A DNA stretch of 58,035 bases, from assembly GCA_000442015.1 (NCBI GenBank), contig KE560897.1:1-58035 (forward strand). Direction: 5' to 3'. A model generated the notes under the pieces. The model did no database searches. It had not been told where the DNA came from and saw only the letters and a program-made list of their open reading frames with translations. Each line of letters starts with the position of its first letter. Positions within the stretch are counted from its first letter, which is position 1. Below, in pieces: positions 34,133 to 58,035 of this stretch. The stretch comes from Rozella allomycis CSF55. Taxonomy: Eukaryota. Both the position numbers and the translations under genes were made by a program.

Positions 34133-34745
34133 TTTTTTCTTGGACAAGGGTTGCTTATTTAGATGATTACACTTTCCTTTACCGGCAGTCGGTGTTATTT
34201 TCCTTCATTTAATATAAAATAATATAATAGTTTCTTTTTTGTTAATATTTATGGTTCAGTTCCATAAAGAGTTAAAGACATCAAATAATAGAATTGAATT
34301 TGTTGGCAATAATTTAAACGTTATAAATTTTCAGTAATTAAATTATTAATAGTCAATAGATATAAATTTGCACACCATTCTCTCCATTCTCAGGAGTTTT
34401 GAATCTTTAATTAAAGTCACGAATCCAACTCAAAGTTACACTAACACATCAATCGTTGGATCGCAATAAATTGATCAGTTGATTCATTTCAATGTAAGAA
34501 TTTATGTTTTTAACTTTTTTTGCAACGAGAATTCTACCAAAATATATCGAATATGAGGCGACGACTTAAAATCAATGTAGAAACAAATATAACATTATTC
34601 AAAAATTCGATGAATATGTTCAACATTTATTACATTTATTATTCAGGTTTTGAAAACCCAATATATTGTGAATAATTCTACTCAGCCCTGCACTGATGAG
34701 ATTGACTTTGCCACCACAGGGCACAGGGTGACATTATCAGTTGAA

Positions 34746-35747
34746 ATGAAAATTTCAAGCCACACCGCCAGCTACAATAAGCTGTTAGCCATTATCCATG
34801 CACTATGCATAAGCTGCACTGTTCTTTCGATAGGCACTCTAGTGTGGTTTCTCGTAGCTCCGCCGCGCTCAAGCACGACGAATATAGGTACTTCAGACGA
34901 AAGCATTCCAATGCTTATTTGGACGTACTGGGACAGCGACAATGACAGCGACATTCCGCGCCTCGTTTCCGCGTGCATGAAATCATGGAAACAGCATGCC
35001 GGCGACCATGTGATTACAATGATAAGACCGTCGGGTATCAAAACGCATATTAGGAGGGATGTCCCGAAAGAGTTTGTGAACTGGAAGCCGCAGTTCAAGG
35101 CGGACTGGATCCGACTGGCGGTGTTGAGTGAGCATGGTGGAATATGGCTGGACGCGTCTATCTTGATAACGCGGGATTTGGGGTACATCCATGAAAAGCA
35201 GCGGTGGATGCGCGCGCCGGTGTATGGGTACCATTTGGATGGGTATACTGTGGATGGCAATTTCCCGGTGTTTGAGAATTGGCTGATTGCGGCTGTGCGC
35301 GATAGTGCGACGATTAATGCTTGGTTTGCCGAGACGGAGTTTGCGTTTACTAGATTTGCGAATGACAGTGACAAGGAGGATTTGTATGACCGGTATTTGC
35401 AGGAGAAGTTTGGGATGGATGTGTATTTACAGTTGAAGCAGAAGATTGATATTAGCGGGTATTTGAAGATGCATATGGCGTTGCAGAAGATTATGCAGAT
35501 TGATGGTGCACCTGTGCCTAGAAGTGATGCGGCAGAGTTTTATCCGAATGGACCTTATACGTATGTTTATGAGAATAAATGGGAGATGAAAAAATCGATG
35601 CAGAAATTGATGAAAAAGGCTACGCAAGAGTTTTATCCAATTTATAAGTTTAATGGGTATAGTAGAATAGTTCTTGAAGAGCTGTTGAAAGAGGGTGAAA
35701 TAATTGAAGAGGGAAGTCTTTTAGGAAAATATTTTCATTCTCAATAG
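34746..35747 (+). CDS. GT32-like / capsular polysaccharide synthesis glycosyltransferase, type II membrane
   Basis: N-terminal TM, IWTYWD, CMKSWK, KADWIRLAVLSEHGGIWLDAS, ENWLIAA; intronless. Confidence 0.85.
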   Translation: MKISSHTASYNKLLAIIHALCISCTVLSIGTLVWFLVAPPRSSTTNIGTSDESIPMLIWTYWDSDNDSDIPRLVSACMKSWKQHAGDHVITMIRPSGIKTHIRRDVPKEFVNWKPQFKADWIRLAVLSEHGGIWLDASILITRDLGYIHEKQRWMRAPVYGYHLDGYTVDGNFPVFENWLIAAVRDSATINAWFAETEFAFTRFANDSDKEDLYDRYLQEKFGMDVYLQLKQKIDISGYLKMHMALQKIMQIDGAPVPRSDAAEFYPNGPYTYVYENKWEMKKSMQKLMKKATQEFYPIYKFNGYSRIVLEELLKEGEIIEEGSLLGKYFHSQ

Positions 35748-43361: not shown

Positions 43362-44324
43362 TCATTTACGGCCTGTCCTCGAAATCAAATAGTAAATTAA
43401 TGCTGTGGAAAATCCTTGTGATGCAGTGAAAAATGAATGGGTCAGGAACAAGAATGGTATTGGATTAGTAGGATCTAGCATATTCTGGACTCTATTTACT
43501 GACCCCCAAATCCAAGTGAAGAAAACAGCAATAATAAAATAGCTAGAATGCTTCACATAAATGAAGGCTGCTTTGGAGAGCTTAAACGCTTTCTTCTTTT
43601 GCTTTAGTGAATCTGCTTCCGATTCCCTCCCGATTGTTGAAGTCGGAGCTTGAGACGTTGATGGATTCGTGTTTTCGTTGGCGTTGTCCTTATCTTTCTT
43701 GAAAGATTCGATTGAAATTTTCCATTTCATTATTACGTATACAATAACATTTATAATCAGAACAACCCAGATAGGTACGTAAAATAATGCCATCCTCAAG
43801 GTAGAATACTGGGGCGTAATCCAACACCTCATTTACAATTAGCAGCAAATAAATTACCACAGAACCGAGTTACCGTATACATCGGATGGGTAGAACAATA
43901 ATATGGAACTTGGCAAAACTGTTCCCACGAATACCGCAAAGTGATAAAACTTTTCGAACTTTTCAACTTGTTGCAGTGTGTATTTTCTTTTAAACTTAAT
44001 AAGCAGATTTAAAGCCATAAAGCCGGTGTACAATACACCACCAAGCAAAAATTGAATGAAAAATCCTTGAAGCTCACAAAGGCCTTTAACCCCGATTCCC
44101 GACCTTTGGATTTCAATGTAAATAATAAATTACTCTCCAATTATGGTCCCCAAATTTCCAATTAAACAGTAAATCGCTGTTGAAAATACAAGGCGGTTAG
44201 CAGGAGTACGATACGTCTTATCATACAAATAAGAAGCAATCACAAAAAGACATCCTAATATTGATAAAGCACTCGAGACTCTGATTAATATTTGTGATGC
44301 GAAAGTTACATCTCTCGAGAGCAT
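43362..44324 (-). CDS. cAMP-receptor-like (CAR/CRL family) GPCR, 3 exons
   Basis: SALSILGC, RTPANRLVF, LCELQGFFIQ, YGNSVLW|CWI, RMALFYVPIW, WIWGSVNRV, SQGF. Confidence 0.88.
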
Positions 44325-44436
44325 TTCGGATGTGTTGCTATGGATTGATAAGTGCCAGATTTAAATATTACGATCACATTTGATCTTTGTCTATTCACAA
44401 GAATATCAATATGTTAAAGCTGTATCATACTTATAT

Positions 44437-45438
44437 TTATTTTTTCAAGTTTTTGTGTCGGGTAACAAGAACGTATATGCTGGCATTCACTAATCCTTGG
44501 CATGTTCCAATGCTACAATGCATGATAAAAAGAAAAGAATTTGGATTCGCTATTTTATTAAACTGTTTGTATATCATTACCAGGATCTATCATATTTTGT
44601 ATTCTGTTCACTGTTGCCTGTTGGCCAAATCCAAACACATATGCCTCCAATTATAAAGTAGCTAGCCTGCCTAATGTAGATATATGTTGCCTTTGACAAA
44701 TTTTTCGATATCTTTTTCTTTTCATTGTCAGTCCCATTTGTGCCTGGCTTTACGGAATCCATGTCTTCATTCCTTGCTAAGCTTTCTTTTTTCCATGTTT
44801 TAAACTAGCATAACTACGATAAGAACTCTTTACTTTCATGAAAAAATACACAAATATGTTAAATGAAAGAACTATCCATATCGGAATGTAAAACACGCCC
44901 ATTCTTAGTGCCCCAAATTCAGGCTTTACCCAACACCTTTTATGAGTAATCGAATGAATGTGTACCACAACGTAGAATTTCATATGTATCAAAAAGTTGA
45001 GGTACAAAGAGTAATGAAATTGCTGGAGTAAACGATAGCAAAAATACACAAAAATGATAAAGTTTTTCGATTTTTTCGATTCTTTTTAGGTTAAACCTCC
45101 TGCTAAATTTTAACAGAAGATTTAGCGACATGCATCCATTATACAATACGCTACCAACCAATCTGACTTGTTTAGAACTCCTTGAAGTTGACAAAGCCAT
45201 GAATAGTCAAAAGATTGTCTATAATGAAAAAAATTCGCCGTTACGTGCCTATAACACTTCCTATTGATCCAACAGCGCAGTAAAAGGCTGTGTAGAAAAC
45301 TAATTTTGTCGCTGGTATTCTGTAATTTTTATCATAAAGATATGTTAAAATCACAAAAATGGATCCTAAGAGTGACAGACTAGGAAATATTTTTGTAAGC
45401 ACTTTTAGAGTTTCTAAAGTTTCCAAAGGTAACGGCAT
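44437..45438 (-). pseudogene. Frameshifted tandem paralog of the CAR-like GPCR
   Basis: Same motifs as its neighbour, but with apparent 1-nt deletions near 45172 and 44980 and a 7-nt duplication at 44611-44617. Confidence 0.8.
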
Positions 45439-45513
45439 GTTGCTATAGTAATACAATATCCGCAGACTTGCAGTGGACAATATACATGGTGCTTTGATAC
45501 GTTAAGGTTCAAA

Positions 45514-47118
45514 ATGAGGATTATCGGTGGCTCAGCAATGGCAACCTTATTGGTAGCTAAAATTTGTACGATATACAATGAAAATACCCTGCAACATAAG
45601 CATTTGAGATATAGCTTTATTAATTCCATACTAACATATGATAATTTAATACTAGGATCCTCCGATAAGTTGTTTATTCATGCAAACTGCATTTTAGCGG
45701 CTAATGATATAAAAAGGGACGACTTGATAGCCTTTCATATAAGGGAAGGTCAGAAATATGTGGAAAAAGAAATTGGTTCTTCTGGATCTCTTTTCTTCTA
45801 TGCATGTGTAATGTGCGACCAGGTTTTAAATGAAAACCAAGCAAAAGCATTTGTGAATTTATGTATAAAGTCGAAACAAATCGTATACTCCTTCAAAATT
45901 TATGAAGTGATGACAACAAGATATCTAGATGTAGAGAACATTTGTCTAGAAGCCGAGAAACTTGCTAAATCTAATAACAGAATGGATGTTAAAGTAACTA
46001 ATTATTAATGCAAAGACAGAAATATTTTGAAGCCGTTAGATGTAGGTTTTACTTTCTAAATAAGAACTTTCAGCAATTGGATGCTTTGTTGTCTCAATGG
46101 GAAACTGATGCGCTCGTTAATTCAGAGACTGATGCATTTGATATAGAGGCACTAAAGGCAGAAATTGAATTTATAAAGATTTTAACATATCTGCAGCAAG
46201 GTAAATGGGCGCTAGCACAAGAAATATTGCAATCATCGAAATTGCCAGAATCTAATGATAAAAAGTATCTTCTACCATCATGGCGAACAAACGATGAATT
46301 ATATGTAATGTTCCACATTATTGGATATCTTTCAATGAGGCATGAATCTTCCAACAAAGCTGAATTACTTTTGCAAGTAGCCGAAAAGGAAATTCAAAAT
46401 GTTTCAAATTCTACATGGAAAAGAATAACTTTGTTCATGATTTATTGCTACAAAATTGAGACTTTTGTTTCACAAGAAAGGTTTGAAGAAATAGAAAAGG
46501 TAAAATTCTGAGTTAAAGGAGAAAATAGTGTCTGATTGAATTTTCAAACGTTTCGCAAGATATTGATCGTTTAGATCAATTGGACATTTGGAAGAGATTT
46601 TTATTTGTTTTCGCATTATTACAACAGGCCAGAGGTGACTATGAAGCCGCTAACGTTTTCTATGATTTGAGCGCCAGAGATTGTATAGAACTAGATTTAA
46701 AAGTTATCGCGCTATCCCAAATGCTGCAAATACACGTGATTGGAGCAAATAAAACCGAAGAGATCATATCAATTAAAAAGGCCTTAGTAAAGATTGTTGA
46801 CGAAACTCAACCATATCTCGCTGTTCTCCTTCAAATTATAGATTGTATTTCTCTTATTTACTACGATGATTGTGTTGAAGCGAGGTATCCATAATTCATT
46901 CAACTCAGTATAGAAAAGGCCTGTATGACATCCTTGCCCAATTAACAGAGTCCGTTCATGACAATGTACTAAAAGGTACAGCTCTAATTCTTCTGTACCA
47001 TACTTATAAAAATTCAAGTGACGAATTTGCGGAGAAAACATTAAAGGCAGCACAGTTAATTATAAGCAGGAAGAAGATAGCAAACTCTTTACTTTGTGAA
47101 CTTTGTAAAATAGAATAA
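45514..47118 (+). CDS. TPR-like helical protein, probable cohesin loader Mau2/Scc4
   Basis: Multi-exon helical repeats; WRTNDELYVMFHII, LQQARGDYEAA and AEKTLKAA resemble recalled Mau2 blocks. Start uncertain. Confidence 0.5.
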
Positions 47119-47211
47119 ATATATTAACATTCAATCATTAAATGTCTTTAAACTGTCATCATTTTTAAATCTATATTTGCCTGAAAAATTCTTCGACCCC
47201 TGCAATTCGAA

Positions 47212-47686
47212 ATGGAAAAAACATACATCATGGTAAAGCCAGACGGAGTCCAACGTGGACTTGTCGGCGAAATTATCAAGCGCTTTGAACAAAAAGGATA
47301 CCAACTTTTGGCTGCCAAACTCGCTCAACCATCTCGCAAAGTCCTCGAAGAACACTACAAGGATCTTTCAGCTCGTTCCTTCTTTCCTTCTTTGATTGAA
47401 TACATGAGCTCCGGTCCAGTTATGTGCCTTGTATTTTCAGGAAAGGGAGTTGTCAAGACTGGTCGCTTATTACTTGGTGAAACCAATCCTTTGAGCTCTC
47501 TTCCAGGTACCATCCGTGGTGACTTTTGCGTTGAAGTTGGCAGGTAAATGTTAGCAACTAGATTTAAATAGAAATGTTTGCCATGGATCTGACAGCGTTG
47601 AATCTGCTGAACGTGAAATCAAATTGTGGTTCCCTGAAGGAATCATTGAATACAAGAGAGCCGTTGATCAATGGATCTATGAATAA
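47212..47686 (+). CDS. NDK1: Nucleoside diphosphate kinase
   Basis: [34 protein letters not shown]; one short intron. Confidence 0.98.
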
Positions 47687-48022
47687 ATTAAGAAAATTAG
47701 ATAAAGTGTCTAATTGTTAATTAACTTTGTCACTTAATGTCTAGTTATTTTTGATTTCTTTGAACAGTGACCGATATATTCCTAATCCGCGCAGAAACCT
47801 ATATGTAGCTAGATATTTGTCGATATGTGCTTATGACTTTATCTTTGAATCAACAGTAACTTTAAATATTGTTATAACAAACGCATTTGAAACACATTAG
47901 ATTAATGCTTCGTTTGATGTTTATAGCATGTTTGTGTGTAAATGTCACAAGCACGTGTAACACGTTTCCAAGTTTCCGTATCGGTATCCTTAAAACGCTC
48001 AATTACCCTTGTTTAACTATAA

Positions 48023-49561
48023 ATGCTAACAAGAACGGTTGCTTTCTGTCTCGCATTGTTAAACATTGCTTTTGCTAGCATCATTCATGTCCCTGTGCTA
48101 TACGATAAGACTACGAATGTGATCATTTCAGCCTATGAAACCAGCCAAATCCTTTATGGCGAAACTATTAGCAACCTCTGGTACCAATATGTTTTTCGGT
48201 GCACGAAAGAAACGATTCCCGAACGCATGGACCTTTGGAACTTTAGGAAGCTTGTGACTAACACATTGACAAAATTTTCTTGGCCTCAATATCAAGGGCC
48301 ATTGTCAGAGATTCATTACCAATTCTCTCAAATCCCCGTTCCTGGATATTCCCGTTTGGGTGTGTATGCACTTCCTGTTCCAGCAACATTTTACGATCTT
48401 TTCAGTATCGCTATGCATGTGGATAATAAATACGAAGAATCTGATGAAGTGAATATGTTTTTGTATTCTATGACTTCAACCAATCCAATCAGAGAGAAAT
48501 TCTTGGCTTATGGGTACTTAGAAAATGAACAGTGGGATCACTTGGTGAAAATGGATATCATGTCAAAGTTTGCTCGTAGTGTTCAAGGCTACAACATAAG
48601 AAGTTGGAACAAGGGAAGGTATTTTGAAAGATTGAACGTGAGAGCGAAAAATTATTTGAACAAAGTTGCAGACTTTGCATACATAATTGAAAGAAGAAGT
48701 GACAAAAATTCTCCTATTCCGCCAGAGTTATCTACATTATACGAAACCATATATGGACAAAAACCAAAATTTGAAAAGTGCGAGGTAGTTTACTGTATCA
48801 AGGCAAAGAACTCTGCAGTGATTTTGAATTCATGGCCAAGATCATTATACTTTTTCGACTCGGATCCTTACTTTGATGGTGATGCAAATGAATTCAAGAA
48901 GACAAGTTTGATTGCCAAGGTTATAAAATCTGAATGGAATGCCTATTATTTGGAACAAAAGGTTCTTTTGTACACTGCCAGAGATGTCATTGGATCAAGA
49001 AAGCCTGTATTATTAGATTTCCCAATGCCAGTTCATCTGGTTCCACAGAAGAATAATGTCCAAAATGTTGCCAACATTCTGAACATTGCAAAACGATACC
49101 CCCTCATACCTGGAAAGAGCATGCCTTTCCGATACACTTTTCTATCTGGTTTCATGAGGGATAATGTAGCAGCCACAAGATATGCCGCTGTTACTTTTCC
49201 AAGCATGATGACGTTTGCGCAAATTAATGTTGAGAATGGAAATCATATCATATATGCGTACAAAATGACGGTTGATGAAGCTAAAGAATTCTTTGATCTT
49301 CCACAAACTCCGATAAAAGACCTAATATATGCAAATAATCCGAGCGCGCTGCCATTCCTGAACTTGAGCGATGAAAATAGTCGCTATTCTCGTCTACCGA
49401 GCTATCGTATGTCATGGAACAAGTTAAAGAAGTTCATGAAAGAACATTACGACAATAAGGTGTTGCTACTTAATGAGAATGGTTTGTTTGAAGGGAATGA
49501 AGATGATATGAAGATTCTAAAATACGCTGATATCGCGAACGAAATGGAAAAATCTAAATAA
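48023..49561 (+). CDS. Unknown secreted protein (512 aa)
   Basis: Signal peptide MLTRTVAFCLALLNIAFA; intronless; no recognised domain. Confidence 0.7.
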   Translation: MLTRTVAFCLALLNIAFASIIHVPVLYDKTTNVIISAYETSQILYGETISNLWYQYVFRCTKETIPERMDLWNFRKLVTNTLTKFSWPQYQGPLSEIHYQFSQIPVPGYSRLGVYALPVPATFYDLFSIAMHVDNKYEESDEVNMFLYSMTSTNPIREKFLAYGYLENEQWDHLVKMDIMSKFARSVQGYNIRSWNKGRYFERLNVRAKNYLNKVADFAYIIERRSDKNSPIPPELSTLYETIYGQKPKFEKCEVVYCIKAKNSAVILNSWPRSLYFFDSDPYFDGDANEFKKTSLIAKVIKSEWNAYYLEQKVLLYTARDVIGSRKPVLLDFPMPVHLVPQKNNVQNVANILNIAKRYPLIPGKSMPFRYTFLSGFMRDNVAATRYAAVTFPSMMTFAQINVENGNHIIYAYKMTVDEAKEFFDLPQTPIKDLIYANNPSALPFLNLSDENSRYSRLPSYRMSWNKLKKFMKEHYDNKVLLLNENGLFEGNEDDMKILKYADIANEMEKSK

Positions 49562-49654
49562 AATCACTTGCATAATGTATAAAAGTTTCATTTATTTAAA
49601 AGTAATGGTTTTGACAAACATGGCATTCTTAATTCTGAAATTGGATTAATTAAT

Positions 49655-50110
49655 ATGCCCATTGTTTATCTAACAAGGAAAGAGCACTTCTCATCTGCCC
49701 ATCGCCTAGAATCAAAATATTTAACTGAAATTCAGAATAGAGAAGTGTATTCCAAATGTTTCGGAATTCACGGCCACAACTACACACTGAAAGTCACATT
49801 GCGGGGAACTATAGTGTAATAAAGCACATATAAATAAATAGTAAAGAGACGGGAATGGTGATTAATATAACTGACATGAAGCGGATCATTCAAGAACATG
49901 TATTGAAGAAATTGGACCACAAAAATCTTGGAGATCTGGAGTACTTTCAAAATGAACCGAGGTACAACAGTTACAATAGCGTATCCTAGTACAGCTGAAA
50001 ATATCGCGATATTTATATGGAATGAATTGAAGCCTCATTTTGGAGATTTGTTATACGAAGTGAAGTTGAAAGAAACTGAAAACAATACAGCCATTTACCG
50101 AGGCGAATAA
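49655..50110 (+). CDS. PTS: 6-pyruvoyl tetrahydropterin synthase
   Basis: FSSAHRL, KC..IHGHNY, TGMVINITD, LDHKNL, P|STAENIA, ETENN...YRGE; two short introns. Confidence 0.93.
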
Positions 50111-50185
50111 AAAATAGAAAGAAATTAATACCAATTTCATAATATAATAATTATATAGCCCACTTTCCAAATAACAAATCTTTAT

Positions 50186-53100
50186 TTAATCACTTAAACT
50201 GCAAAGCGCCGCCACTCCTCTATTAATCCAATGCGATTCCTGCAAATCAGTCGGCAGTCTAATAGAAAGCACATAATTAGTGCTATGCCCCGTCGTCGAC
50301 AATGTGCCTCTTCTCGTCGCCGTCTTGTAAACCGGACAATCATACGCATTCCTCTGCGCGATTTTTGCTCGATCCATCGGCTTGAACCACAGCACAGGCA
50401 GCTGGTCAAACAAAACTTTAGGCAGCGATTCAGCGAGCATATGCGTTTCCGAATTCCAGCGCGCGCCTTCAAGGTACAGTCCGTGCACATACACACCATC
50501 AACCGGCGGCACTTTGGTGTTGGTGCTGCCATCTAGAATTTCAAAATCTAATGCGAGGATATCAATTGGCAGAGAGAATTTGCGTGCATAGTTTTGTAAG
50601 CAGCCGGTGAGAAACGATTGCGTGAAAAAGAAGCCTGAAATCCAAAAGACGGGTGGTGGGCCGTTATCGTACCAGCTTTGGAAAAAGGATATGCGATTGA
50701 GGAAATCTGAAAAGTAGCTGCCGAGTGGTTTGATTGATGGATACGATTTGCTCAACCACAGTGGAGGTATTTTGGCAATGAGCATTGATTGAGCGGTTGT
50801 TTCTAGTTGCGGAGTCATAAGAACGAGTCCTTTTAATGCCTTGAGAAGTGAATTGAGAGATGACCGAATGAGATCCAAAAGAGCTTGGAATCTGATGCAT
50901 TCCTGGATGAGAACTGTGTTCATGCTATCATTGTAATTAACAGGATACTTTGTAGTGATATCAACCATATTAAAGTCATTGGGTAGTCTATTAAGTAAAT
51001 CCGAAGCTAGATCGATGATTAATTGTTCATTAGATTGACCACCCCTTGATTCAGTAGAATTTTGTGTCAAAAGAACAGCAGACAAGAGATTGAAAGTTTC
51101 CAGTTGATTCTTTGTAATATCAGCGTTGTCATTCAAGTGAAATACTTCAGGTTTAGAATCCATTGGCAGATTTTTGATAAATTCGAGGTACGAATCAAAA
51201 GAAGAATTTGTAGGCCGAGGAGCGAAATAAATTCCACTGTTGGAAAACTTGTAATCATCGTCCATAATCTTGGGAGTGTAGAAAATGTTCAATAAACTCA
51301 TCAAAGTTCTTCTATCCTTGTCATCAGTTACTCTTCCACCATACTATTAAAATAAATGAATAAACTTACGTTGCATTCACCAGTTAAATATCTTAGCGCA
51401 TCAAAAGGAATTTCATCGTAGCTATTCAAAAAGATTCTCACTTGTCTCGCACTAATTCTCAAATCTGTATCATCTTTAATCAAAAATATTAAGCATGGTT
51501 ACTAAATTCATAAGGAATATTCCAACCAATCGGACCATACTGCCTCCTCTCCTGGATAACAGCATGGAAGAAGCACAACCCAAACAATAATTTCTCAAAA
51601 GCGACTTGTTTATTGCATCCATTAAAGAACGAAGGCTCAGAGATGGGATCTCCAGTGAATGATCTATAAAGATTAGCTTTCAATCCCTTTGGAGGTTCCG
51701 TTGTCATTTTCACACCATTTTGCAGAATGGAAACAGGAAACTTTTCAGAAGGATACGAAGTCAACCAAAGTCTAAAATTTGGATTAGTTTGATCAGGCGA
51801 CAACTCTTCAACAATCTGCTCAAGCGACGGGAGCCAGGAGACAGCTAAATGGCAGTTCTGGAGAATCACCCAGGACCCTTCAGAAATGGCTCTTGTGATA
51901 ATCCTGCTAGCGATAACCCCCTGGCCCTGTCCAAGCGAAATTGAGCTGATCTTCTTGTCATCAAATCCCTTTGATTCAGCAAACTTTAGCAACCCAGTCA
52001 TTGGATCAGCACCAGGCGACAAGACAAATATCAATGGCGTTGTTGGACTGCTATCACTGTAACAAGAAGACAGCTCAAATGGCGGTGGTTCAACAAACTC
52101 ATTGCCAAGCGACTCTTTAACAAACTTTTTAACACCAGGCACAAGCTTATCAGAACGGAAACACCTCAACACTATCAGTTTCTGGAATAGAGATAATTCA
52201 GAATCCCATTTCCCTGGCAATGGCAGTTCATGTGGATCAGCATGATCATTAAAGTGTTTCCAATCATTCAAATTCAAAGTGAAATCAGCGAGAAATGAAT
52301 TAAAAGCAGGTAAATTGATCAATCTGTTTAATTCAGCCCAAGTTTTCTCTGATATCCACGACTTGTCAGGATTTGGCGGGATTTCCTTTTCAATAGACAA
52401 GCCACCAGTTAGCAAAAATCGCCATTCTTCTTCATTAATTTTATCGTGAGATTTAAGAATAGAAGAACAAAGCAAGAGAGAAAACACAAGTTTATCTTTT
52501 TCAAACAGAGATCGACAGACATTGTTGTATAGAGATTTAGTGAAATGATTTTTCAGATTTAGCAGGCGGTCTGAAACATTTGAAGACTTTTCGCTGTTTT
52601 CAATTGAAGAAATAAACAGATTAATGAACCATGGGAGAGAGTATTGGTACATTGGCTCAATATTAGCTAAATCAGAAATACAAAAAAACAAGATAGAAGA
52701 ATGAGTAGCAATTGAAGTGTATCCTAATCGAATTTCATCGATTTCTTTTTCTGTTGCTTCTGCGGTTGCTTGCTTTTCTTTCACTTGATTAGCTAAAACT
52801 TTTGAAGAAGATAAGATTTGAATTGCAGTTTCATCTTCTAAAATATTCCCTTGCGATGATGAAAGAATTTCTAAAATTTTATCTTCAATTTCTTTCAATT
52901 GTCGTTTATTGTCTGCTGATTGAACGATTAATTGATTTTTCATTTCTTCCAATTCTGGTCTTTCCTTTGCTATAGTAATGCCTAAGTAAGTTGTGAATAT
53001 CTATGTTACCTATATTAGTCTTTAATAACCTATTTACCTAGTAATTGATCTTCAAGCCCCTCTTTAGTTATCATAAAATTGATAATAGTAACTTTAGTAG

Positions 53101-56100
53101 AAATTTCAGGCAAATAATGCGGATTCCTCAGCTTTGTCGTAATATAAAACCTAAAATCATGCGAAAACTCAATAACGGAATCCCCAATCCTAATAAACAA
53201 CTGCCCACCCTGCTTAAACGTCTGCTTCAACAACAACGGCTCCAACACTGGGTCCAACTCTTCACCCACATTCTCCAACAGAACTGGCGTCCCAAACTGA
53301 ATTGCATTCTCCAACGTTCTCATGTAATCCGCGTCAGACAGTTTAATCACCTGTAAGCCCCTTGATTTCTCCATATTCTTAATCCACCTATTAGCCTGCC
53401 CCTGTGGATCTATCATCAGCGGCCATCTAGCTGTATTAGACGAAATCACAGCATTGTCAATCGAAAACGAATCATTCGGAAGCCCATTAATAATCCACTT
53501 TCTAATATTCACAGGCTCACCCAAAGTATTCGCAATCTTAATCGCAGAAGAACTGGGAATCTTCTTTTCTTTGCATATCTTTATCCAATCATTCAAACAC
53601 TCATCTCTAAAACTTTTGGTAAAGGCACCCAAATAAGCCACAGATCCAGACGCAATCAAAACATCACCTAACTCACCAACTAATAATCAATCTACCCAAC
53701 AGCGTCTCATAAACAATATCCAACTCTTCAGCAACCCTCGTCCATCTCTCTTTCTCATCTCCAAGCGAATTAATCAGCTTTTCCGCTCTCACAAGCTGTT
53801 TCGAACAATTATCCACTTGCAGTTCCAAAGATTCCTTCTTTTTCGTCATTTCTTCAAACTTTAGCTCCAACTTGGTCATCCTCTCTTCAACAGATTTCAG
53901 CTGCAGCCTCTTTTCAGTCAACTTTTGCATCGTTTCAGCCAACTCCTTTTCAGCAATCGCCAACGCTTCCTTCTTGGGCGCAACCACCTTGGCCACCCTG
54001 TCGTAACACTCCATCGCTCTCACCCATCTACACAGCCCTTCAGCTGCCGACGACGCATTCTTCACCTATCATTACATCTATTGAAACAAATTACTTTTTC
54101 AGGATCAAATTCAGGATTGTCCATATACTTTTGCCTAATCTGTTTCATTATAGCCGGCTGTATATTATCTCTATCATAAGTTCTCAACGAATCCAGAAAC
54201 TTCATATCAGACATCATCGTCTTTGCTGGCCCCCAATAGTCATCAATCTTCTTGCCAGGCGAATTCGGATCTGGTATTTTCACGCTCTTCACATCCTTCA
54301 TTATACAAACAGCCTCCATCACCAGCTTCACATTGCCTATCCCAATAAACCACTTTCATTACCAGGCGGAGACTTCATTGACTTTAGCAGCGTTATATCC
54401 TGCGCCTTCAAAGTATCCAAAGCAGCCAACGCAGCTTCAAGAGCCGGCAGCGCTTCCGCCAGATCATGCTCACACTCCTCCTTCATTCTCGTTGAACTCG
54501 CCGCTTGCTCACTTGCAACCGCTTCATCCTTTTGCACAACAACTCTAACCTGCTGAACTTCATGCGACTCTTTCTCAATCTGTTTCATAATAACGTCAGT
54601 CTCCTCCTTTGTTTTAATCAACTCTGGCTGCAGCGCTTCCAATTCTTTCTGCATTTTGGCCACCGACAGAGACGCAAATTTAAGCTTTTCCAATCCATTC
54701 ACATACCTGAATCTATAAGTGGAAATTTCTTCTTGTTTCTGCTTTAATAAACTCTTGAATGTTTTCAGTAGCTCTAAATATGAAGTTGGAGTGACATAGT
54801 TTCTTCTTTTGAGTTCTGAATAGTACTTTTTTGAAAGGGAAATGACGCTGTTGTGAAAGTACATGCACATGAATGAAATGTTGTCGATTGGAATGTCTTT
54901 GAAATCCATCACACTGAGAAATTTATTAGCAACAATTTTAAGAGCATCTTCAGGCCATGTTTGGTACCAAGCTATTGTACAACAATTAATAATGGATGGG
55001 TATTGTCTCAATCTAACTCTGAACACATCACCAATAGGACTCATGCACAATACTATATGAAGATTTTCACAACATCTATCAGTGAAACATTTCATTACAG
55101 CATTGGGTCCCTGTACACTTGGATTATTACTTTTAATTAATTCTGTTATGTTTTGTTTATCTTCTGCTGTTAACAGATTTGGTACTTGCCCTGAATTCAA
55201 TAGATTGTTTATATCTTGAAGGAATGTTTCATTCTTTATTTGATTGTCTGAAAATAGAAACACAACTTGTTTGTCTTCTCCACCCGCCTTTTTTAATAAA
55301 CCTCTAAGAAAATCTTGCCAATCTGCGTAACCAAAATTCTTTGATATTTCAACTTGAAACAAATCAATATTCTTAATATACGCTGCCAATCTTTTCAAAT
55401 AGAAATAAAATTAATTACCTAGATTAAACATAGATTATGTATTGGTTACCTGGTTAATGATTGTCTTCCACTGCCACCAACACCAACTAACAACATATGG
55501 CCTCTTGGTTGTTGCAGCACTCTACTAATCCTCAACAAATGTTCAATAGCAAACCTAAGTAACAAATTTAACAAATAATTTACCTAATTTCAAACTACAA
55601 AAACCACTTTACCTATAATTAACCCCTCAACACCATTTTACCTAAACATGACCAAATCCATCGGCTTCTTTGACAACGCATTATGATCCACCAAATACTT
55701 TTCAATCAACGCAGCCAACTCGTCAAACCTAACAATCTCTCTATAATATTTCTGATTCTCTTCGCCCGGCACAAAATCACAAAACATTAATTTGCGCAAA
55801 TCAGACTCTACAATCTCACTCTCGCTCTTGTATTGCTCCATACACGATTCAAAGGAATTATTAAATGAACTGTTCACAACATCTCGTATCAGAGTAAAGA
55901 ACCATTGGCGGTCAGAATCGTCCACTAGTCGGTCGTAGAACACGCGGTACACTTCGTGTGTCCAGAGTCTGACCAGCTGGTCTTTACTGGCAATACTCTT
56001 ACTACAACTAGTCAGTATTCCTATCAACTAAAACTTCAAATGTTTACCTTTCACTACTCGAGCAAAGTCTCTAAGATTAAACGTATAATGACTCTTGGCT

Positions 56101-58035
56101 GGCGTCGGCAGTAGATTCTTCATAGACTCTCTATAAACTCTTCTCGTAGCTTCAACAACTCGACCACCAAGCGAAACAATCTCTGCACTAAACTGCTTTG
56201 AGAAATGCCAATCAATAATAGTCTTGAATATTCTATCCAACGTCTGATCATCAAAATTGGTTAATCCAATGGCATTAAAATGACCTTTCAAACTCAACTG
56301 ATTCAATTACCCAAATATCTAGGTGTGACAACATTCTTTGCAGTTGTAGCAACCATCGCAGTAATAAACTGAATATCAACAAACTCTTGCATGTTCTTTT
56401 CATTCAAATTATACCAACCGCCATGATCCATCCACTGGCGAAGTAATTCTATTGGCGGCTGTGCTCCATACTGCTCTTTCAGTGGCATTGACAAATCATC
56501 AACAAAGATTAAACACTTTTTGCCAATTGGAGGTCCAAACACTCCCTTTCTTCTCTTTTCTATTTTAGATTCAATCATTTCTTGCGTTTGGTTGCATGTT
56601 GTTGTTGCTGAAAAGGTTATAAATATTTGATTAAACTTTTCTGCAGATAATTTCTTTGAAAGCACATCTTTTATATAAGCACTTTTACCTTGTAATGTTA
56701 ACAATAGTTTCTTTTACCTATATATATTCAACTTAGACTTCTGATTACCTAGTCTCAATAACACTATCTCTAATTACCTGTTCCAGTTGACCCAACAAAT
56801 AATACAGCCTTCATATTAACAACCAACATCTTCAAAAGATAAGAATATTTAGCAGTATCAGCAGTCTCTACCAAGATTTCTTCATATTTAGCATTCAATG
56901 GAATAACTGTTTTATTTATAGTTGAATTCCAATGAACCCATTCACCATCCTTTAAACAATAATCATACACATTCCCAGGCACGGCAGATTTCAATTCTAA
57001 CTTTGGAATAATTGACTGTTTTAAGAATGCGTCAAATTTTGTTCTTCCTTCTTCGTTTAGGCAGCCACCGAGAGACCAAACCAAGCAAAACAAAAAGACC
57101 ATTGACATAGGGTTTGAATTAGCTGAATTCGCATTAGAATTATTAGAACTAAACGTATTTGAATTGATATCATTGGAAATGTAAAAACTCTCAATCATAT
57201 TCATCAAAGAAACCACCAAATTAGAATCCTGCGTCTGACACATCTCCCCACAATTCCCTCTAACAAAGCCCAAACACTCATCCACCAGCTCAAACAGCGG
57301 CACATACCCACCATTAATCCACCTCAAACTCTGGTTCGCACCCGCATTCAATTCACACTTTCTCAACCACGAAACAAACAGCGGCTTCCATCCAAGACTC
57401 GACGGCTGCATATATATCATCCCACACCTGCTCACAGTCGCAGGAGAGGCAGCCTCCAGATCCTTCACCTCGAACATCATGCTCATCGTAGAAGACAGTT
57501 GTATAATCTCGCCGCTCGTCAAACAAAGCTTCTTGTTGTCGTCCAGCACTGTATTCATATTCTCAATCCAGATAGCATCCACTGGACCATCAAACACTAT
57601 CCACTTTCTGTCGGGGCTCGTTGATGATGAAAATGTGCGGAAAATAACAGCCAACACTCCGTCAGACCATTCATGCGTTATTTGGTCGAATTGGCCATAC
57701 AGTTGGCCCATTGTAATTGATTTGGGATTAATAACTGACACTTGCACTTTTTCATTCATTTCTGTTAATGCTTTCTGCAGAACTTTGTAACATGCTGTTT
57801 TGCCACTGAAGGGTTCTCCTACAAGCATAAATCCATGTCTAACCAGCATCATTTCATACACTTGCAACACCTTTCAAACATAAAATTAAAGTTTACTTTG
57901 TCAATGAATACAGGGACTGGTTGAAGGTTTAATTTTTCACATGATTCTGTTATAGATTTTATTAAATTTCCGTGATCAGCTTTTGGCAATTCAGTTCCCG
58001 GAAACAAATCAGATATTATACCTTTTGAGATTAAA
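50186..58035 (-). CDS. Axonemal inner-arm dynein heavy chain (DNAH3/7/12-like), 5' end outside the window
   Basis: P-loops [25 protein letters not shown]; stalk/microtubule-binding region; SLGQGQG; C-terminal [15 protein letters not shown]...HWINRGVA. Confidence 0.96.
52982..53037 (-). other. Stacked intron, 2 units (28+28 nt)
   Basis: gtaaataggttattaaagactaatatag|gtaacatagatattcacaacttacttag between DQLLG and [11 protein letters not shown]. Confidence 0.85.
55391..55449 (-). other. Stacked intron, 2 units (31+28 nt)
   Basis: gtaaccaatacataatctatgtttaatctag|gtaattaattttatttctatttgaaaag within RQSLTR|LAAY. Confidence 0.85.
55555..55641 (-). other. Stacked intron, 3 units (29+29+29 nt)
   Basis: gtaaaatggtgttgaggggttaattatag|gtaaagtggtttttgtagtttgaaattag|gtaaattatttgttaaatttgttacttag within MDLVMFR|FAIEH. 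Confidence 0.9.
56689..56777 (-). other. Stacked intron, 3 units (29+31+29 nt)
   Basis: gtaattagagatagtgttattgagactag|gtaatcagaagtctaagttgaatatatatag|gtaaaagaaactattgttaacattacaag, splitting the P-loop GSTGTG|KS. Confidence 0.9.

Follow-up and report, generated by a model that had tools for sequence, protein, structure and literature searches.

A dynein gene of Rozella allomycis is interrupted, within its AAA3 Walker A motif, by 89 nt that read as three minimal introns laid end to end, and this raises the question of whether the spliceosome excises such a stretch in one step or unit by unit. The window analysed here is the whole of contig C549 (KE560897.1, 58,035 nt), in an assembly of 11,859,274 bases and 1059 contigs. 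Such stacks of abutting units are real and genome-wide, and their sequences suggest piecewise excision of the longer introns.

The dynein gene and its triple stack

Between 58035 and about 50186, the motor half of an inner-arm dynein heavy chain is encoded on the minus strand of the window, with Pfam domains in dynein order and DNAH7 as the best solved-structure match (E 1e-103), the exon end before the stack aligning to FVGPTGT. This part of the gene has 12 intron sites: four are stacks, of 89, 87, 59 and 56 nt (Table 1), and eight are singles of 26-29 nt, of which two are placed by a single reference. The 5' part is very likely on contig C662 (L063), whose alignment to the reference runs as far as the residue at which the window takes over, and which holds stacks of two, five and two units; counting these, the gene very likely carries at least seven stacks. 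The contig break (the C662 end and window 58035-58022) lies inside an intron that has on both sides the AG|GT typical of stacks and is possibly another stack, and large stacks may for this reason be under-counted.

Table 1. Coordinates of the dynein gene, its exons and stacked units, and of the candidate stack on metagenome contig L159
Feature	Position	Strand	Description
DNAH7/3/12-like inner-arm dynein heavy chain gene, 3' part	50186..58035	-	8 single introns, 4 stacks
Upstream exon	56778..57870	-	AAA2, lid, AAA3 start; 3' end is GSTGT-G of Walker A
Triple stack, unit 1	56749..56777	-	29 nt, GTAA..TAG; TTGA at -10..-7; preceding exon ends CAG
Triple stack, unit 2	56718..56748	-	31 nt, GTAA..TAG; TTGA at -14..-11; zero-length exon each side
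Triple stack, unit 3	56689..56717	-	29 nt, GTAA..AAG; TTAAC at -13..-9
Downstream exon	56311..56688	-	begins GTAAAAG (Gly-Lys-Ser codons); first AGs end at 7, 21, 35, none at 26-32
Second triple stack	55555..55641	-	29+29+29 nt, phase 2
Double stack	55391..55449	-	31+28 nt, phase 2
Double stack	52982..53037	-	28+28 nt, phase 1; paralogue C255 has a single 29-nt intron at the same position
L159 four-unit stack	1511-1385	-	abutting 33, 33, 28, 33 nt, each GTAAG..CTAA..YAG

The triple stack (56777-56689) consists of three GTA..AG units joined at two TAG|GTAA junctions, 56748/9 and 56717/8, in which an acceptor abuts a donor, and it has AG|GT at its two outer borders as well. Five of six reference dyneins place the same 89-nt gap here, in phase 1 and ungapped, in spliced alignments made with a purpose-written protein-to-DNA aligner that charges one flat intron cost and has no length preference; the sixth is misaligned over 188 nt. 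Removal of all three units restores VGSTGTGKS. The stack is absent from the protein and leaves no micro-exon, as seen in the ungapped alignment to the five references and in the Pfam AAA_7 match, which takes its positions 3-44 from the upstream exon and 46-170 from the downstream exon. The first-pass annotation, made from the letters alone, had proposed just this, three dissimilar units splitting GTG|KS of the AAA3 Walker A. It had also held that incomplete removal would block a functional product, and indeed all seven retention patterns meet a stop, including the two that keep 60 nt and so stay in frame. When the interior is shuffled it divides into 24-34-nt GT..AG units in one of 1000 shuffles. 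The stack is of U2 type by its GT-AG ends and by the canonical U1 and U2 pairing regions found in the genome, where U2 snRNA (139 bits) carries GUAGUA and U1 snRNA (69 bits, just under the cut-off of 69.5; E 2e-16) carries ACUUACCUG.

Pairwise identity among the three units is 0.25, 0.45 and 0.33; random unit pairs average 0.31, with 0.57 as their 99th percentile. The units are thus dissimilar, at background identity, and the stack is therefore old. A branch-like motif lies in the -11..-4 window of unit 1 only, those of units 2 and 3 being slightly further upstream, and a hairpin test of the stack gives z +0.7. The GTAAAAG at the start of the next exon is donor-like, as had been remarked, but is largely dictated by the Gly-Lys-Ser codons; it has no partner because no AG ends 26-32 nt downstream, an observation that is weak alone as most sites lack one. 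Unit 3 is not a copy of the exon start, the letters in common being GTAAAAG only. Walker A glycine codons hold introns in other dyneins of the Rozella genome too, so the position of the triple stack is not special.

DNA reads agree with the assembly here. An 862-nt contig of run X4 covers 56414-57275 with no other letters and no gaps, although the X4 sample is possibly the source of the assembly and does not represent an independent strain; the window's other three stacks are covered without change by a 6313-nt contig of X5, which comes from another sample. Of four runs out of 15 placed on 44000-58035, X5 and X6, like X4, behave as DNA, with long ungapped contigs across introns; the RNA run X11 gives only 34-44-nt pieces of less than 95% identity there, which are no evidence on expression. 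At 44600-51600 X4 has clusters of alternative letters, with about half the depth, as well as two indels, which would fit heterozygosity; several of these letters fall inside the single intron 51502-51474, and none is present in the X4 contig over the triple. Elsewhere in the window, 34614-35747 on the plus strand is a 377-residue frame matching capsular-polysaccharide-synthesis or DXD glycosyltransferases (PF05704, E 6e-15).

Stacks in dynein genes and across the genome

Ten further dynein loci were aligned, and sites were kept if at least two of ten references agreed ungapped, giving 63 sites and, with the 12 of the window, 75. Intron length at these sites is quantised: 54 are 26-31 nt long, and of the 21 that are longer, 17 (56-119 nt) divide wholly into 26-32-nt units. 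For each split site 0-4.6% of 1000 interior shuffles match (0.1% for the 89-nt stack), and the three C662 stacks also fit the unit lengths. The four sites that do not divide are one of 37 nt (a unit of 28 nt and 9 further bases in frame), one of 38 nt supported by two references, one of 45 nt that starts GTGA and is in frame, and one of 214 nt in C255 that is a local duplication with N; we read them, without proof, as alignment or assembly artefacts. The test of quantisation covers the dynein genes; an ab initio scan for introns with no length preference was too noisy to rule out ordinary long introns in the rest of the genome. The exon before the site ends in AG at 15 of 17 stacks and 17 of 54 singles (p=5e-5), and the downstream exon starts with GT at 12 of 17 and 22 of 54, respectively (p=0.05). 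Three positions common to dynein paralogues, 53037 among them, are occupied by a single intron in one paralogue and by a double in its counterpart.

The strict pattern TAGGTAA-N19-27-TAGGTAA has 161 matches genome-wide against 4 in the reversed control, and a second strict pattern 179 against 11; a loose pattern is uninformative (295 against 266). A chain finder, run on loci fetched largely because of a pattern match, yields 100 distinct high-scoring stacks of 2-7 units and about 53-210 nt. Stacks evidently cluster in some genes, since an unselected 200 kb of contig C861 gave only five doubles, all under the high-score cut-off.

Stack genes were named by Pfam on 100 neighbouring frames (99 of 113 picked, plus one), each name being that of the nearest long reading frame and not of a full gene model. 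Five of the 38 further stack-bearing locus-strands are flagellar and about 30 housekeeping. The named genes include PRP8, a BRR2-like helicase, an RPB1-like subunit, RNA polymerases, SMC, TOP2, SPT16, UBA1, RPN1, USP7, ECM29, Sec7, TRA1, GCN1, clathrin, three CCT subunits, glycogen debranching enzyme, phosphorylase and P-type ATPases, most of which encode large proteins. With the dyneins counted in, flagellar genes may be over-represented, but they also rank with the longest genes. The stacks at L065:5841-4103 and L056:5257-5169 lie in PRP8 and the BRR2-like helicase, both core spliceosome genes, and a feedback on splicing capacity is conceivable. The RPN1 double (L039:4564-4499), two near-identical 33-nt units ending GAAG, stands at the upper limit of unit length and stems from duplication of very recent date. 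Local duplications of an exon plus a stack in C255, C648 and C366 (L029:3365-3152; L062, L049), some with N, are likely assembly or allele artefacts.

Individual units carry their own signals. T[AG]A at -11..-4 is present in 76% of 234 internal units (42% when shuffled), in 65% of 100 last units (36%) and in 80% of the 54 homology-placed singles (41%), and the most enriched 4-mers are TTAA and TAAC; this putative branch-point signal is one of motif enrichment. Units that are both a multiple of three in length and stop-free number 11 of 334. Internal units end in TAG in 203 of 234 cases and last units in AAG in 53 of 100. Internal TAG is in frame in 79 of 203 units, compared with 13 of 31 for other ends, and we reject the explanation that it serves as an in-frame stop; our guess is that a stronger acceptor is selected at sites that are both acceptor and donor. 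A hairpin across the stack was also considered and rejected, there being no excess folding in the 80 of 100 stacks in which it was sought (mean z -0.12 and -0.06).

Sequence outside the stacks shows the same length range. In 333 long reading frames (335,367 nt), a set independent of the stacks, GTAA is followed less often than expected by an AG that ends 26-31 nt on, with 121 observed and 175 expected at 586 sites, and for lengths that are not multiples of three the depletion has p=5e-6. Six control 4-mers show no AG deficit (p>=0.15), nor is there one after GTAA at 14-25 or 38-43 nt. The depletion is weak in the context G|GTAA (12 against 20 expected, p=0.018) and absent after AG|GTA (22 against 23.7 expected); of the G|GTAA hits 24 of 38 have a length divisible by three, and hidden 27- and 30-nt introns in those frames are perhaps responsible. 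Such avoidance is what a ruler-like spliceosome would select for.

Neighbouring units are often related. Identity exceeds the 99th percentile of random in 74 of 234 neighbouring pairs, and similarity between neighbours together with AG|GT is found in 47 of the 100 stacks genome-wide, being undetectable in the 89-nt triple. Exon-derived sequence was sought in first and last units and not found (p=0.52 and 0.17). The polarity of internal TAG and last AAG is not a plain copy of the exon end, nor is it predicted by exact whole-intron duplication. The first unit of a stack is rich in G and the last in C (74 against 17 of 100, p=4e-10), and third-position skew of the flanking exons drops across stacks, from about 0.5 to 0.15, and not across singles. 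On visual inspection, most stacks in long genes sit where a strong sense-strand G skew is declining. This skew reaches +0.8 and falls towards the 3' end, for example in L031, L032, L037, L058, L063 and window 50000-58035. Stack-rich genes seem to have the strongest G skew, and a shared mutational cause of skew and stacks, e.g. transcription-linked damage, is a guess we would offer.

Splicing and growth of stacks

We consider it probable that the 89 nt comprise three minimal introns of U2 type, each functional, with zero-length exons between them, that these introns are excised singly, and that stacks grow by duplication at AG|GT. The spliceosome would join each GTA donor to an AG lying about 26-32 nt downstream, by intron definition and a length ruler, and a stack would therefore be removed unit by unit. 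Removal of each unit would leave another intact donor or acceptor, and any order would work. Stacks would arise from ordinary single introns when a segment about one unit long is duplicated in tandem at AG|GT, and the added units would be tolerated, as nearly neutral changes, because every new unit would itself be spliced. Each internal junction would become a further AG|GT duplication site, and in old stacks the unit bodies would have diverged with their junctions kept.

Removal in a single step, from the first GT to the last AG of the 89 nt, with the internal AG|GT as leftovers of duplication, is unlikely. It would agree with the canonical outer ends, and many stacks are young enough to have retained their junctions passively, yet in the triple stack both TAGGTAA junctions and the unit lengths are intact though the bodies are at background identity. 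Nor would it lead one to expect that all 17 clean long sites, which were found without seeking junctions, split fully, that branch-like motifs are as frequent in internal units as in singles, or that no excess of hairpins exists to bring the ends together.

Less likely again is a regulated delay or switch that withholds dynein until the flagellated stage, a possibility raised in the first-pass annotation. All partial products are indeed non-productive, but stops are to be expected in AT-rich introns and the internal TAG is not preferentially in frame. The dynein gene has its seven or more stacks and several flagellar genes are stack-rich; the named stack genes are nonetheless mostly housekeeping, the fetched parts of two axonemal dyneins, C265 and C589, have no stack in 14 homology-placed sites, and stack and single alternate among paralogues at shared positions. 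A delay is possible as a by-product of stepwise removal and a dedicated switch unlikely.

An assembly stutter or a chance arrangement in AT-rich DNA, although local duplications with N do exist at some loci (the 214 nt of C255), can be set aside because the X4 contig crosses the triple, and the X5 contig the other three stacks, with no differences, and the units are dissimilar and the strict pattern so much more frequent than its control. The same dissimilarity had been held to argue against a recent duplication as well as a stutter; it holds for the stutter, but for duplication it shows age and not absence, as a near-copy pair is still present in 43 of the 65 stacks with three or more units.

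A ciliate candidate and known systems

One candidate stack comes from outside Rozella. A metagenome scan returned at least 121 stretches, of which 80 were examined: 75 were simple or tandem repeats (by filter), four looked unrelated, and one, L159 (Ga0315905_10122899), was taken further. This contig is 2604 nt long, has telomere-like (C4A4) ends and, under code 6, contains a gene with a GAS2 domain; from its ends and code we take it to be ciliate. Without all four units its gene has a 786-residue frame; its three 33-nt units could be coding, because the frame needs removal of the 28-nt unit only. On the sequence of this one contig, a convergent ciliate stack is possible. More tentatively than for the triple stack itself, Rozella may represent a lineage with obligate piecewise splicing, in which the spliceosome spans no more than about 32 nt and introns lengthen by whole self-propagating units, through duplication in G-skewed stretches of long genes, the same solution having been reached independently in a short-intron ciliate.

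Should these readings be correct, recursive splicing would be the routine fate of any Rozella intron above about 32 nt, and the stacks would offer natural material for testing intron definition and a length ruler in the spliceosome. They appear to record gains of introns by duplication that differ widely in age, some with units still identical and others with units wholly diverged, and PRP8 and the BRR2-like gene are among the genes concerned. Rozella gene models and intron counts may score stacks as single long introns. We found no account of stacked minimal introns in Rozella or other tiny-intron genomes in the full text of openly accessible papers, and a term search of PMC13644364, PMC5014332 and PMC13685798 did not find recursive splicing or tandem introns. 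One study mentions, for R. allomycis S23, two putative introns some 30 nt long, and describes the long, 76-nt intron of E. cuniculi as a single structured intron, unlike the Rozella stacks (PMC6349667). The tiny-intron genomes of microsporidia, Paramecium and nucleomorphs have a narrow intron length class, as does Rozella.

AGGT tandem genomic duplication creates a new donor and acceptor with the protein unchanged (PMC3443670; PMC3265369). It is described for exonic segments and gives one new intron, whereas in Rozella it has apparently been repeated at intron junctions to give arrays. Fungal stwintrons are likewise complex intervening sequences, which are removed by consecutive U2 reactions under intron definition, an internal intron interrupting the donor, branch point or acceptor of an external one so that the order is forced (PMC7138796). 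The Rozella units, in contrast, abut with the GTA donor and AG acceptor intact in each, and their order looks free; the stacks are not stwintrons by definition, as no splice element is interrupted in the DNA.

Recursive splicing is known mainly for huge introns, with zero-nucleotide exons at Drosophila ratchet points and in vertebrates. Judged from their sequence, Rozella stacks would work most like recursive splicing at such exons, with removal in steps. The likeness lies in AG|GT with a zero-length exon and in a donor, branch-like motif and acceptor for each part. Where animal recursive splicing occurs in very long introns, the Rozella stacks measure about 53-210 nt. In Cryptococcus BOT1 one 375-nt intron is split 210+165, and according to that report recursive events had until then been known only from very long animal introns (bioRxiv 10.1101/224170). 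The Rozella segments differ in being 26-32 nt long, in lying up to seven in a row, with about 100 stacks catalogued, and in often being tandem copies of one another.
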